Below, one piece after another: positions 1 to 53,565 of a stretch of DNA of 64,000 nt. The position numbers and the translations under genes were made by a program. The stretch comes from Parcubacteria group bacterium Gr01-1014_20. Its GTDB lineage: Bacteria; Patescibacteriota; Minisyncoccia; UBA6257; 2-01-FULL-56-20. Within the stretch, counting starts at the first letter, position 1; every line of letters begins with the position of its first letter. Location: the NCBI GenBank assembly GCA_007376265.1, contig VMFW01000002.1:13970-77969 (forward strand), written 5' to 3'. The notes under the pieces were generated by a model that was not told the DNA's origin, made no database searches, and saw only the letters and a program-made list of their open reading frames with translations.

Positions 1-1431
1 ACCCGCGAGGGGTGGCTTGCCCTTCGGCCTATAATCTTCCAAATCGGGCAACACAACCGGCAAATCCTTCTCCGCCACCGGCTGGATTCCGCACTTTACG
101 CAGTGGGTCATCGGAATCGGCACCCCCCAATATCTTTGCCTCGAAACTGACCAATCCCTGATCTTGTACTGAACCTTCTTCTCCCCCTCCATCTCTTTCG
201 TAATCTCCCACCTAGCCTTCTCCGAATCCACACCATCAAACTTTCCTGAATCAACTAGGTGTCCTTCGCCAGGATAAGCCTCATCCAAAACCGGACAAGT
301 CTTCGCTGGATAATGCGGACAAATTACCATCTTTATCGGTAATTCAAATTTCTTCGCAAATTCAAAATCCCTCTCGTCGTGCCCAGGCACTGCCATAATC
401 GCCCCCGTTCCATACGAACCCAAAACGTAGTCCGAGAGCCACACGGGGATTTCTTCCTTGTTTCCAGGATTTACTGCGTACACGCCCGTAAAAACTCCCG
501 TCTTATCTTTTTGATTCTCTAATCTATCCAGCTCCTTTTTGCCCAAACTCTTTCGAATGTACTCTCTCACCTCTTCGCTTGTCTGCCATCCCACGTCAAT
601 CCATTTTTGCGCCAACTCCGGCGAAACCACCAAAAAAGTTGCCCCGAAAAGCGTATCTGGTCGAGTGGTGAAAACTTCCACCGAATGTTTCCGGTCCGGC
701 TGCCCAGGCACCTTGACTAAGGAAAATTTCAGAAGCGCCCCCTCGGATTTTCCAATCCAATCTTTTTGTCGCTTTATCGTCGCCTCCGGCCAATCCAAAT
801 TCTTCAAATCAGAAAGTAATCGCTCGGCATAATCGGTGATTTTCAAAAACCACTGCTCCATATCCTTCTGAACCACCTCTGACTTGCACCGTTCGCATAC
901 ATTTTTGCCGTCTTTCTGAACCACCTGTTCATTCGCCAAAACCGTCATATCGCTCGGACACCAATTCACTTTTGCTTTTGCCCGATACGCCAAACCTTTT
1001 TTATAAAGCTGAATAAAAAGCCACTGGGTCCATTTGTAATATTCGGGGTCGGAGGTATTAATCTCCCTCTCCCAATCATAAGACAGCCCAAACATCTGCA
1101 CCTGCCGCTTAAAGTTTTTGATATTCGCCGCTGCTACTTCCTTCGGATTTTTTCCAACTTTAATCGCGTAGTTTTCTGTAGGCAACCCAAAAGCATCCCA
1201 ACCAATGGAGTATAGAACTTCACGACCCTTCATTCGCATATACCGAGCGTGGACATCTTCGGCGATGTAACCCTTAGGATGACCCACGTGTAAACCTTCC
1301 GCTGAGGGGTAAGGAAAGGTTTCTAGCTGGTAGAACTTGGGCTTTTTCGATTTATCATCAGCTTTAAAGGCCTTAGCTTCAAGCCATCGTTTCTGCCATT
1401 TTTTTTCGATATTTTTAAAGTTATAAGTCAT
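1..1431 (-). CDS. leuS: leucyl-tRNA synthetase, N-terminal part (gene continues past the left edge of the window)
   Basis: My minus-strand translation from the ATG at 1431 reads MTYNFKNIEKKWQKRWLEAKAF...FPYPSAEGLHVGHPKGY (HIGH motif)...DWSVSRQRYWGVPIPM with no stop before position 1. The ORF track omits it because no in-window stop exists; the listed 29..211 ORF is an out-of-frame artefact. Confidence 0.85.
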   Translation of the reverse strand, partial: MTYNFKNIEKKWQKRWLEAKAFKADDKSKKPKFYQLETFPYPSAEGLHVGHPKGYIAEDVHARYMRMKGREVLYSIGWDAFGLPTENYAIKVGKNPKEVAAANIKNFKRQVQMFGLSYDWEREINTSDPEYYKWTQWLFIQLYKKGLAYRAKAKVNWCPSDMTVLANEQVVQKDGKNVCERCKSEVVQKDMEQWFLKITDYAERLLSDLKNLDWPEATIKRQKDWIGKSEGALLKFSLVKVPGQPDRKHSVEVFTTRPDTLFGATFLVVSPELAQKWIDVGWQTSEEVREYIRKSLGKKELDRLENQKDKTGVFTGVYAVNPGNKEEIPVWLSDYVLGSYGTGAIMAVPGHDERDFEFAKKFELPIKMVICPHYPAKTCPVLDEAYPGEGHLVDSGKFDGVDSEKARWEITKEMEGEKKVQYKIRDWSVSRQRYWGVPIPMTHCVKCGIQPVAEKDLPVVLPDLEDYRPKGKPPLAG

Positions 1432-3449: not shown

Positions 3450-4178
3450 ATGACGGCTCAAACCGCAACGGTAACCTGGTATGGCGCTTTTGAACTCAAG
3501 CGAGACTACCAGAAACACCTTCGCTACGGCATCACCTTTGCCGCACTCTTCGCACTGTCAGTACTCGGAGCCTACAAAACTCTCGTCACCGAAACCATCG
3601 CTAAAAACGAAATCATCACTGTTTACGAACCACCACATCCGGTTCCACCGCCCCGAACCAGAGATCGCGTGCCTTTGCCGCCAATAGTCACTAACGCCGC
3701 TCCGCCAGTGCCAGTAATCGGCATCCCCACTCCAGTACCCGATGCAGAAGTTGCAGAATCACCAGTTTTTCCTACGAAGAACGAAATTGCCAACACAGGT
3801 CCTTTCTCTCCTGAAGGCACGGGTACAGGCAATAACGCGATAGTCGACGTCCCCAACGGAAACTTCGGCGACTACTTTCCAACCCCAGACGAATTCATGG
3901 CTGTCGAAGAAATGCCGGTCATGATAAGCAAGGTCTCACCCGTTTATCCCGAGGTTGCCTTACTCACCAATCGAGAGGCTACGGTTTGGATCAAAGCCCT
4001 GATTGACAAAGAAGGCAGGGTTCGGGAAGTGCGCATCGCCAAATCCTCTGGATCAAATGTTGGTTTCGACGAGGCCGCTCTAGACGCTGCCTGGAAAAAC
4101 CTCTACAAACCAGCCATTCAAAACGGCCGCCCGGTTGCGATCTGGGTTACGTACCCAGTCGAGTTCAAACTCAAATAA
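3450..4178 (+). CDS. TonB C-terminal-domain protein (N-terminal TM anchor, Pro-rich spacer, TonB_C domain)
   Basis: TM helix GITFAALFALSVLGAY, spacer PPHPVPPPRTRDRVPLPP, and C-terminal PVYPEVALLTNREATVWIKALIDKEGRVREVRIAKSSG...NGRPVAIWVTYPVEFKL typical of TonB_C. Confidence 0.7.
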   Translation: MTAQTATVTWYGAFELKRDYQKHLRYGITFAALFALSVLGAYKTLVTETIAKNEIITVYEPPHPVPPPRTRDRVPLPPIVTNAAPPVPVIGIPTPVPDAEVAESPVFPTKNEIANTGPFSPEGTGTGNNAIVDVPNGNFGDYFPTPDEFMAVEEMPVMISKVSPVYPEVALLTNREATVWIKALIDKEGRVREVRIAKSSGSNVGFDEAALDAAWKNLYKPAIQNGRPVAIWVTYPVEFKLK

Positions 4179-50658: not shown

Positions 50659-51645
50659 ATGCCACAACCAGAACTCTTTGTTACTCTCTGGCCAAGTTTC
50701 CCCCATTTCGATCGCTTCTCTAGAGATTCCCGTATCGCTGGTATTCGCTTAAACAGCGCCATGATCTCAAACCCAGAATTAGAGAAAGAGCTAGTACTTG
50801 TAAAAGATTCCAAAACCGAAATCCCGATGTACTTTGACGCAAAAGCAAGACAACTTCGAGTCGAAGAAGTTCATGAAAATCCCGACTATCTCGACATAAG
50901 CCTGAACCACCCGATCTCCGTCCAGACTCCCTGCATCGTACTTTTCAAGCAAGAAATCGATCAAGCCATGCTAGCGGAAGTCACCGAAGGCGGCAGACGT
51001 CTCAAGTTCTCGCTCAATCCTCGCTATAACGTAAGACCTGGTGAATCCCTTCATATCCGACACTCCAGCCTGCAAGTCCACGGTCCAAACTTTACCGACA
51101 TCGAAAAGGAAAAAATCCGGCGTGTCCGAGAATTCGGCTTCCGTCGATATTTTCTATCCTACGTCGAAAACCAATCCATCATTGATGAATTCCTCGAAAT
51201 GGTGGGCAGCGACGCTGAGGTTTTTCTGAAAATCGAAAACGAGCGCGGTCTTGAATTCGTGGCGAGTGAGTTCCAAAAAAGAGATGGTCTCTATCTAGTG
51301 GCCGCCAGGGGCGATCTTTATGTAGAGCTAGATCGTCCTCATAAAATCCTGCAAGCCCTCAAGCTGATCATCAGCAAAGACCCAGAAGCCTGTGTCGGCT
51401 CAAGGATCCTGTTGTCCATAATCGGTGACCCCGTTCCTTCCTGTGCCGACTTTCTCGAGCTGGCTTGGCTCTACGACATCGGTTATCGAAAAATGATGCT
51501 CTGCGACGAAATCTGTCTTAGGGAAGAGTGGCTTGGAACCGCTATCAATGCCTTTGATAGTTTCCGAAACTCTTATCCTGAAGACCAAATCACTCTCGAC
51601 CTTCGGGATGAAACTGAAATCTCTCCTATAGAATCAATTGCATAA
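50659..51645 (+). CDS. divergent pyruvate-kinase-like TIM-barrel protein (PK barrel without the C-terminal regulatory domain)
   Basis: Matches the PK barrel landmarks: VTLWPS (cf. CTIGPAS), AGIRLNSA (cf. ARLNFSHG), LKIENERG (cf. SKIENQEG), AARGDLYVEL (cf. ARGDLGVEI), MMLCDEIC (cf. VMLSGESA); RBS AAGGAG. Confidence 0.65.
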   Translation: MPQPELFVTLWPSFPHFDRFSRDSRIAGIRLNSAMISNPELEKELVLVKDSKTEIPMYFDAKARQLRVEEVHENPDYLDISLNHPISVQTPCIVLFKQEIDQAMLAEVTEGGRRLKFSLNPRYNVRPGESLHIRHSSLQVHGPNFTDIEKEKIRRVREFGFRRYFLSYVENQSIIDEFLEMVGSDAEVFLKIENERGLEFVASEFQKRDGLYLVAARGDLYVELDRPHKILQALKLIISKDPEACVGSRILLSIIGDPVPSCADFLELAWLYDIGYRKMMLCDEICLREEWLGTAINAFDSFRNSYPEDQITLDLRDETEISPIESIA

Positions 51646-51649
51646 AAAC

Positions 51650-51682
51650 AGCCCGGGCGCCTCGCTCCCGGGCTTTTATTTC
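51650..51682 (+). terminator. rho-independent terminator GCCCGGG..CCCGGGC + TTTTATTT
   Basis: GC-rich 7-bp stem immediately after the stop of 50659..51645. Confidence 0.7.
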
Positions 51683-51739
51683 CCCACTACATACTCATTC
51701 TTGAAAAAAAAGCTTTTTTTGATACACTAACCATTGCAT

Positions 51740-52011
51740 TCCCCGGTAGCTCAGCGGTAGAGCGGATCCCTGTCGGATAGGCAGCCTATAAGAGTAATCT
51801 TATTTGAAAATTTCGGGATAACGGTGAACCCTTCGATATGCTTTTTGGGCATATAAAGGTAACACCGTGGGAACCCCGCCGAGGCGGGGGCACCGTAGAG
51901 ACTAGATACCGAAACATCCCACCCAGGATGATGATATAGTCCACGCCCTTTGGAAACTTTGGGATAAGTGTAAGGATAAGGTCGTAGGTTCGAATCCTAC
52001 CCGGGGAGCCA
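51740..52011 (+). tRNA. tRNA-Asn(GUU) interrupted in the anticodon loop (after U35) by a group I intron; exons 51740..51773 and 51971..52011, CCA encoded
   Basis: Exon 1 is TCCCCGGTAGCTCAGCGGTAGAGCGGATCCCTGT. Exon 2 is TAAGGATAAGGTCGTAGGTTCGAATCCTACCCGGGGAGCCA. The joined product folds as a canonical tRNA with anticodon loop CUGUUAA and is nearly identical in D- and T-arms to Bacillus-type tRNA-Asn. Confidence 0.7.
51774..51970 (+). ncRNA. group I intron (~197 nt, small IC3-like, no ORF) within tRNA-Asn
   Basis: 5' exon ends in U paired to a GCAG internal guide (U.G wobble), intron ends in G; P7 from R-like CCGTAGAGACTAGA and S-like GATATAGTCC; stable hairpins TATAAGA/TCTTATA, ATATGC/GCATAT, CCCCGCC/GGCGGGG; resembles the 205-nt Azoarcus tRNA-Ile intron. 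Confidence 0.7.
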
Positions 52012-52048
52012 AATAAAAATACTCGATGTTCGATCGGGTATTTTTGTT

Positions 52049-52067
52049 TCTCGGGTAGGATTCAAAC
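52049..52067 (-). repeat. inverted partial copy of the tRNA-Asn 3' end (TCTCGGGTAGGATTCAAAC)
   Basis: 15 of 16 match to the reverse complement of GTTCGAATCCTACCCGGG. Confidence 0.35.
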
Positions 52068-52155
52068 AGGGAAAGGGGTCGGGAAAACGGGAGTTTTCCT
52101 GTGGCGGAAGCATTGAAACCGCTGGGTTTCAAAAAATTTGTGATAGCAAATTTTG

Positions 52156-52179
52156 TTCGATTGCCTACCCGGGGAGCCA
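52156..52179 (+). repeat. direct repeat of the tRNA-Asn 3' end (att-like): TTCGATTGCCTACCCGGGGAGCCA
   Basis: 23 of 24 nt shared with tRNA positions 51989..52011 (TTCGAATCCTACCCGGGGAGCCA), 145 bp downstream of the tRNA. Confidence 0.6.
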
Positions 52180-53545: not shown

Positions 53546-53565
53546 CTCCTACCCGTGGAGCAAAT
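53546..53565 (+). repeat. degenerate third direct copy of the tRNA-Asn 3' end (CTCCTACCCGTGGAGCAAAT)
   Basis: 17 of 20 match to ATCCTACCCGGGGAGCCAAAT; with 52156..52179 it brackets the NMO-like gene. Confidence 0.45.

Follow-up and report, generated by a model that had tools for sequence, protein, structure and literature searches.

A probable self-splicing group I intron between U35 and U36 of a Parcubacteria tRNA-Asn(GUU) gene

The classical group I introns of bacterial tRNA genes belong to the IC3 subgroup and are known from tRNA-Leu(UAA) of Anabaena/Nostoc (between positions 34 and 35), tRNA-Ile2(CAU) of Azoarcus, tRNA-fMet of cyanobacteria (33/34) and tRNA-Arg of Agrobacterium. The IC3 plan, which reportedly goes back to Michel and Westhof in 1990 and to later structures, is said to consist of a compact core with a P2 helix, with no P2.1 and no P5abc, and with GNRA loops on L2 and L9. 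The hallmark of the IA subgroup is a set of extra helices, P7.1/P7.2, located between the 3′ strand of P3 and P8.

The mapping of 5,292 group I introns that interrupt tRNA genes raised the number of known classes from 4 to 21 (Williams 2020, bioRxiv 10.1101/2020.01.27.920355). The class residing in tRNA-Asn was named ‘Asn.4Ug' in that work, as it is cited in a study by Nakagawa et al. (PMC13011429; posted as a preprint in July 2025 and published in mSystems in 2026). In 95 complete Patescibacteria genomes, Nakagawa et al. described introns between anticodon positions 35 and 36 (hereafter 35/36 introns) in 15 tRNA-Asn and 3 tRNA-Asp genes. Two 35/36 introns, one from tRNA-Asn and one from tRNA-Asp, self-splice precisely in vitro with GTP alone, and a C in place of the terminal G blocked ligation (PMC13011429). 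The same authors found group I introns in ∼40% of Patescibacteria genomes and reported that default tools miss the 35/36 introns, while ARAGORN and tFind often call such genes tRNA-Thr(UGU) with an intron at 33/34 (PMC13011429).

The interrupted tRNA-Asn gene and its host

The locus analysed here, part of a 64-kb stretch of DNA that we call the window, adds a member to the published Asn.4Ug class and opens no new question. It is identical to the Patescibacteria 35/36 class in host tRNA, insertion site and phylum, as well as in the U that precedes the splice site and the terminal G of the intron. Default tools likewise fail on it, and ARAGORN likewise miscalls it as tRNA-Thr(UGU) interrupted at 33/34. 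The window's copy, however, comes from the draft metagenome-assembled genome (MAG) Gr01-1014_20, whereas the surveys used complete genomes or 2017 assemblies and probably did not cover it; no mention of Gr01-1014_20 was found in the accessible portion of the supplement text of PMC13011429.

An earlier note on this DNA, made from the sequence alone, had presented tRNA-Asn as an undescribed host for such introns and self-splicing introns as rare in reduced genomes of this kind. The argument for novelty fails, because the class was published in 2020 and in vitro spliced members were reported in 2025/2026; besides the 15 published tRNA-Asn genes, at least about 30 more were found in our own scan (see below). 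Rarity is contradicted by the ∼40% of Patescibacteria genomes that carry group I introns. The guess that the genome was a reduced one proved right, the host being a member of the Parcubacteria according to the identity of its GMP synthase. The GuaA protein encoded in the window shows 100% identity to its counterpart in Parcubacteria group bacterium Gr01-1014_20, and the next matches come from Paceibacterota, Kaiserbacteria and Minisyncoccia. The host of the intron belongs to the Patescibacteria. The contig also occurs in ENA ERZ27284378 and in Logan SRR8863434.

The tRNA-Asn(GUU) gene occupies positions 51740–52011 of the window on the plus strand, and its two exons, of 34 nt (5′) and 41 nt (3′), are separated by an intron of 197 nt. 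The 5′ exon (51740–51773, tRNA positions 1–35) contains the D arm and the 5′ strands of both the acceptor and the anticodon stems, and its last bases are C32 U33 G34 U35 (...CCCUGU). The 3′ exon (51971–52011, tRNA positions 36–76) begins with UAAGG, which includes U36 A37 A38, and continues via the T arm to the discriminator G73 and an encoded CCA. The intron is thus inserted within the anticodon, between positions 35 and 36 (U35/U36). When joined, the exons form a 75-nt cloverleaf with U1–A72, G73 and CCA that ARAGORN calls tRNA-Asn(gtt). A G27·A43 mismatch in the joined product is common to uninterrupted homologues.

The joined exons were 100% identical to intron-less tRNA-Asn genes in five metagenome contigs, in agreement with the canonical tRNA-Asn with anticodon loop CUGUUAA that the earlier note had proposed. 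In two of these contigs, the 3′ half of the intron-less gene matched the 3′ exon with 100% identity. A 29-mer from the 5′ exon ending in CCCTGT was found in 24 metagenome contigs, most of them representing uninterrupted tRNA-Asn genes. No tRNA was found in the 64-kb window by ARAGORN with default settings. The analysis covered 64 kb of the genome, whose sole tRNA-Asn gene is probably the interrupted one. [quoted passage not shown]

A consensus scan revealed a promoter-like site upstream of the gene, at 51701–51728 on the plus strand, in which TTGAAA and TG-TACACT are separated by a 16-nt spacer and whose end lies 11 nt before the tRNA. This consensus match makes it a candidate promoter, and a TTGAAA...TACACT pair is also found upstream of the homologous tRNA-Asn gene in metagenome contig L142. 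On the other side, an inverted repeat at 52011–52049 (plus strand; I2) could form a hairpin with 17-nt arms, 88% complementary, and a T-rich end. This hairpin is likely to be the terminator of the tRNA-Asn gene, although it was not detected in a stricter terminator scan. Fragments of tRNA 3′ ends are located downstream of the gene, showing that the locus has been rearranged. A minus-strand ORF of 76 amino acids (51902–52132), which extends across intron and 3′ exon sequence, had no family match and was discarded as spurious.

Anatomy and statistical support of the intron

The intron (51774–51970, plus strand) is 197 nt long, has no ORF and is identified by Rfam RF00028, by a family model from which it had been left out and by covariation. 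It starts with CGGAUAGGCAGCC and ends with AAGUG, the last base being the terminal omega-G (G51970), a position that hardly varies among family members. P1 is formed by CUGU|C (51770–51774) and the guide GGCAG (51780–51784), and U35 makes a U·G wobble with G51781 at the 5′ splice site. The two P7 strings were located at 51895–51906 (GTAGAGACTAGA) and 51933–51942 (GATATAGTCC). A U35 wobble to an internal guide GCAG, a terminal G and a P7 built from these very strings had all been read from the sequence in the earlier note, and each of these readings stands.

The remaining helices complete a compact core. P2 (51789–51802) is a UAAGA/UCUUA hairpin with a GUAA loop of the GNRA type, obtained from the minimum free energy (MFE) fold and paired in the family-model alignment. 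P3 joins UUUCGG (51811–51816) to CCGAAA (51909–51914) by six pairs, all of them with compensatory changes. P4 (ACGGUG/CACCGU), P5 (CCUU/AAGG) and P5a (AUAUGC/GCAUAU) lie within 51821–51868, and P6 (GG/CC) and P6a (CCCCGC/GCGGGG) within 51869–51894; both groups are given by the MFE fold and by covariation. In P7, the guanosine-binding helix, GAGACUA (51898–51904, with a bulged A51899) pairs with UAGUCC (51937–51942). P8 (51915–51930) is a CAUCC/GGAUG hairpin with compensatory changes in four of its five pairs, and in the Rfam alignment it is followed by J8/7 (AUGAUA) and the 3′ strand of P7, UAGUCC (51931–51942). P9 (51946–51963) is a CCCUUUG/CUUUGGG hairpin with a GAAA loop and three consecutive U·U mismatches in its stem. 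Tandem U·U pairs recur here in the family, with two mismatches in 21 of 75 members; the three in a row seen in the window are the most of any. P10 has at best two pairs, which counts against activity. The MFE fold of the precursor alone gives P1, P2, P3, P4, P5, P5a, P6 and P8.

With the classical IC3 tRNA introns, the window's intron shares a site in the anticodon loop, a length of ∼200 nt, the lack of an ORF, a compact core of nine helices in which P2 and P9 have GNRA loops, and the P7 motif GUAGAGACUA...GAUAUAGUC; the exons are likewise held together by the anticodon stem. By contrast, its 35/36 site, its guide GCAG opposite CUGU and its P3–P6 sequences all differ from theirs. Its resemblance to the Azoarcus intron may go beyond the P7 string.

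The anatomy of the window's intron, with GNRA loops on L2 and L9, fits the IC3 plan, whereas the published typing places none in IC. In that typing, made by best-scoring model, zero Patescibacteria tRNA introns fell in IC and 25 of the 28 35/36 introns fell in IA (PMC13011429). Although the class is thus mostly typed as IA, P7.1/P7.2 are absent from the window's intron, because zero bases separate the 3′ strand of P3 (51909–51914) from P8 (51915–51930); J7/3 consists of four bases. The assayed tRNA-Asn intron is drawn with a P7.1 helix, according to the methods note of PMC13011429, and the window's intron differs from it in having none. In addition, the window's lineage differs from the two in vitro spliced 35/36 introns in the P4, P6 and P7–P3 segments.

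Rfam Intron_gpI (RF00028) matched positions 51706–51963 with 42.4 bits and an E-value of 1.9e-7 in E-value mode over the 64-kb window, and the E-value was 1.8e-9 when 601 nt were searched. It was the sole Rfam match at E ≤ 0.1 in the window. The search with this model, which the earlier note had proposed as a check, therefore returned the expected family as a unique match but with a score below the gathering score of 50, and for that reason nothing was reported when the window was scanned at gathering thresholds. The Rfam alignment placed P3, P4, P5, P6, P8 and the P7 strings correctly, and wrongly put P1 on an upstream hairpin. The RF00028 seed contains zero bacterial sequences (Williams 2020, bioRxiv 10.1101/2020.01.27.920355).

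A covariance model of the family itself (R1) was built from 64 homologous introns of tRNA-Asn, tRNA-Asp and tRNA-Tyr, leaving the window out. This model matched the window with 171.3 bits (E 3.6e-51) at 51766–51978, end to end over all its 224 positions, and its second-best match in the window had an E-value of 0.29. Together with the Intron_gpI match and the ARAGORN call on the joined exons, this result confirms the central claim of the earlier note, namely a 197-nt group I intron in tRNA-Asn(GUU).

Covariation was analysed in a MAFFT alignment of 75 35/36 introns, tested against the structure derived from the window. Paired cells amounted to 85.9%, versus 73.5% in shuffles and 37–47% with slid partners. 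Compensatory changes were present in 41 of the 58 pairs, and 0 of 500 shuffles reached the observed values. P3 was paired in 99.3% of cells, with all six pairs covarying, and P4 in 99.8%. Across the 75 sequences, covariation supports P3, P4, P5, P5a, P6, P6a, P8 and P9. In P1, the guide GCAG and its partner CUG do not vary among the 75 homologues, and covariation is seen in the pair on the intron side (AU in 44, CG in 15 and GC in 8). P7 neither supports nor opposes the structure by covariation because it never varies, an invariance partly due to the search pattern, which demanded it. The figure for P2 (53.9% paired) is lowered because MAFFT shifts the window's P2 by one column with respect to the others; the family-model alignment pairs P2. 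All the columns that are invariant in the 74 other family members are kept in the window.

Splice register and predicted splicing

Taken together, these data indicate that the locus is, in all likelihood, a Parcubacteria tRNA-Asn(GUU) gene interrupted at U35/U36 by a compact, ORF-less, self-splicing group I ribozyme. Transcription from its own putative promoter would give a precursor of ∼272 nt, in which C32–U35 and the first intron base would pair with the guide GGCAG to form P1, leaving U35 in the U·G wobble. Free guanosine, bound in P7, would attack after U35; the terminal G51970 would then replace the guanosine in P7, and the 5′ exon would attack after G51970. The anticodon loop CUGUUAA would be joined in this step and the 75-nt tRNA-Asn released, with the predicted junction sequence ...GAUCCCUGUUAAGGAUA.... 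The window's lineage is most likely catalytically active by homology with the in vitro spliced 35/36 introns, from which we infer its activity because the two assayed introns belong to other sequence lineages.

The splice register deserves separate consideration since, with introns allowed, ARAGORN reports tRNA-Thr(tgt) i(33,197). The intron-tolerant ARAGORN search thus recovered the 197-nt intron but assigned it to a different tRNA. Under this reading the gene would be a tRNA-Thr(UGU) with the same 197-nt intron two bases earlier, at position 33/34. The tRNA-Thr register likewise has a U before the intron and a G at its end, because the GU dinucleotide is repeated at both boundaries. In the shifted register, however, the nucleotide preceding the splice site forms a pair with A instead of a U·G wobble, and P1 is reduced to two pairs; the 35/36 register is the only one to combine the U·G wobble at the splice site and the terminal G with a 5-bp P1. 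Furthermore, the tRNA body is of the Asn type (U1–A72, G73), uninterrupted genes with the loop CTGTTAA have exactly the sequence of the joined exons, and the identical Thr miscall was corrected in homologous introns by sequencing the spliced products (PMC13011429). We consider a tRNA-Thr gene hardly credible. The practical consequence is that default annotation misses the tRNA, and ARAGORN with introns allowed names the wrong amino acid; therefore, the MAG would be scored either without tRNA-Asn or with an extra tRNA-Thr. Such miscalls affect completeness estimates and genetic-code inference, a point already made in the literature.

Two other readings accept the 35/36 register and dispute the activity of the intron. 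The intron might be a decayed, inactive relic and this copy a tRNA pseudogene, with a separate intact tRNA-Asn serving the cell. An Rfam score below gathering (42.4 versus 50), the three U·U mismatches in P9 and the tRNA fragments of the rearranged downstream region point in that direction, but the family-invariant columns are all kept and the core helices intact, relatives have uninterrupted tRNA-Asn genes that look functional and are identical to the exons, and the gene is flanked by a promoter-like site and a terminal hairpin. The 64 kb also contain zero other tRNAs, and copies with and without an intron for one anticodon are rarely found together in a genome (PMC13011429). A relic is therefore very improbable. 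Somewhat less improbable, though still unlikely, is a real intron that is not autonomous in the cell, either because it depends on a protein or chaperone of the host or because conditional splicing tunes the supply of tRNA-Asn. The weak P10 and the weakened P9 would agree with such a dependence, and regulatory roles for these introns have been put forward, as speculation, by Nakagawa et al. (PMC13011429). Nevertheless, the intron has no ORF, no maturase-like gene adjoins it, no sensor domain or extra helix was found beyond the standard core, and the related 35/36 introns splice in vitro with GTP alone (PMC13011429). An autonomous ribozyme in tRNA-Asn(GUU) remains our preferred reading.

Relatives, host tRNAs and movement

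When species-representative genomes were searched for the pattern AGACTA..GATATAGTC..T-loop, at least 119 stretches were obtained, the majority belonging to Patescibacteria MAGs. After correction of the register, 35/36 introns were assigned to at least 31 tRNA-Asn genes (one being the window's own contig), at least 29 tRNA-Asp, at least 17 tRNA-Tyr and at least 1 tRNA-His. At least nine further introns lie at 33/34 in tRNAs that have the anticodon CAU and, in most cases, an acceptor stem of the initiator type, and tRNA-fMet 33/34 introns with identical P7 strings are among the matches listed. The closest relatives of the window's intron among the matches listed are two tRNA-Asn introns from MAGs labelled Saccharibacteria (79% and 74% identity). 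The window's intron is also 76% identical to the Paceibacteria tRNA-Asn intron of GCA_030583765.1, which is listed in Table S3 of PMC13011429, and both form one sequence lineage.

Among the matches listed, the hosts of the 35/36 introns are exactly the tRNAs with C32–U33–G34–U35, that is, Asn, Asp, Tyr and one His. The nearest neighbour resides in the same host tRNA for 63 of the 75 introns, versus 25 expected, and mixing of hosts is exemplified by a tRNA-Tyr intron that pairs with a tRNA-Asn intron. This clustering by host agrees with largely vertical descent in which introns occasionally switched from one GUN tRNA to another. More tentatively, and with considerable doubt, the compact P7.1-less lineage with guide GCAG may have moved among the GUN-anticodon tRNAs (Asn, Asp, Tyr and His) by retargeting under the direction of the guide, either through reverse splicing or through homing assisted by an endonuclease, and may act as a checkpoint on tRNA supply too, a role conceivable because the intron interrupts what is probably the sole gene for its tRNA. 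In the papers on 35/36 introns cited here, neither the guide and the CUGU site common to the hosts nor reverse splicing is discussed.

A related intron with an endonuclease is present in contig L142 (Ga0209518_1064215), at the same insertion site and behind a 5′ exon identical over the compared stretch. The 3′ part of that intron aligns with the window's at 86%, whereas its P3–P6 core differs, and it passes the Rfam gathering threshold at 65.7 bits. It is ∼560 nt long and carries in its P1 loop a 132-amino-acid ORF for an HNH endonuclease (PHROG 2255, E 5e-29), in contrast to the ORF-less intron of the window; a Pfam search of this ORF gave no match. The L142 intron matches the HNH-bearing tRNA-Asn introns of PMC13011429, where 35/36 tRNA-Asn introns carrying an HNH endonuclease are described in four Patescibacteria genomes. 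Without an endonuclease, the window's intron is probably immobile by itself.

A Logan contig that ends exactly at the 5′ splice site was considered as a sign of presence/absence polymorphism of the intron, which it does not establish: the 5′ exon k-mer, common to the tRNA-Asn genes of many organisms, can alone break a de Bruijn assembly and so explain where the contig ends. A contig from Hainich groundwater (L126), one of the five mentioned above, contains the uninterrupted tRNA-Asn gene identical to the joined exons followed by an NMO gene (84% amino acid identity). As tRNA-Asn and the downstream NMO are shared by the window and L126, one lineage has the intron and a related lineage lacks it, and the two loci constitute a pair for studying intron gain and loss.

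The locus without its intron

A natural counterpart of the window locus that lacks the intron is found in L126, a 21-kb contig from the Hainich H43 metagenome assembly ERZ1292629. Its tRNA-Asn gene (positions 3663-3739) is uninterrupted and shows 100% identity to the two joined exons of the window (51740-51773 and 51971-52011). As in the window, a nitronate-monooxygenase-family (NMO) gene lies downstream (84% amino-acid identity); ∼0.9 kb of additional sequence separates the tRNA from this gene.

A metagenome contig from the same organism as the window (L002, Logan SRR8863434_95596) ends at the equivalent of window position 51773, the final base of the 5' exon. This break could reflect the coexistence in the sample of alleles with and without the intron. 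A simpler explanation is that tRNA-Asn genes of other organisms share the 5' exon k-mer, which would likewise break the assembly at 51773.

Structure and hosts of introns at position 35/36

Among the matches listed from the genome contig scan (L003-L121), every tRNA interrupted between anticodon positions 35 and 36 carries a GUN anticodon (Asn, Asp, Tyr and a single His), and the internal guide GCAG is invariant. A few of the host metagenome-assembled genomes in this set are labelled Omnitrophota, Gammaproteobacteria, Bdellovibrionales, Ignavibacteriota or Terriglobia, labels that may indicate either genuine spread beyond Patescibacteria or mis-binning.

In many family members, helix P9 contains tandem U.U mismatches at its middle: 21 of the 75 homologous introns aligned have two (columns 304-321), and the window has three (51946-51963). 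Their recurrence across the family and the conserved GAAA loop that tops them suggest a structured motif rather than decay.

A larger intron was detected in metagenome contig L142 (Ga0209518_1064215, ∼574-1135, minus strand), where ∼560 nt are inserted at 35/36 between tRNA-Asn exons the same as those of the window (Rfam Intron_gpI, 65.7 bits). Its P1 loop encodes an HNH endonuclease ORF of 132 amino acids (PHROG 2255, E-value 5e-29; no match in Pfam), which extends into the guide sequence. An additional hairpin (UCUCGAAAGAGA) lies directly 3' of the P7 5' strand.

Surroundings of the tRNA-Asn gene

Downstream of the gene, the tRNA-Asn 3' end recurs in three partial copies, well above the 0.01 expected by chance. 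The longest (52155-52179, 144 nt past the tRNA) spans 25 nt from the T-loop to CCA with 24 of 25 bases matching; another (53547-53563, 15-17 nt, 1-2 mismatches) immediately follows the NMO gene, and a 16-nt copy (52050-52067) is inverted. These copies resemble scars of att sites, left by integrative elements for which the tRNA-Asn gene was the target; none occur in the intron-less relative L126.

Upstream, the stop of ORF 50659-51645 is directly followed by a GC-rich hairpin with a T run after it (AGCCCGGGCGC...GCUCCCGGGCUUUUAUUU, 51644-51680). This hairpin is probably the terminator of that ORF and explains several weak matches to sRNA families when Rfam is scanned by E-value.

GC skew stays strongly negative from one end of the window to the other (1-64000; -0.03 to -0.39 per 2 kb), and the minus strand holds the majority of long ORFs as far as ∼47 kb. 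Several very large proteins are encoded (1786, 1334 and 825 amino acids), with weak matches to the CPR pilus protein PamR, beta-propeller repeats and subtilisin-like proteases.
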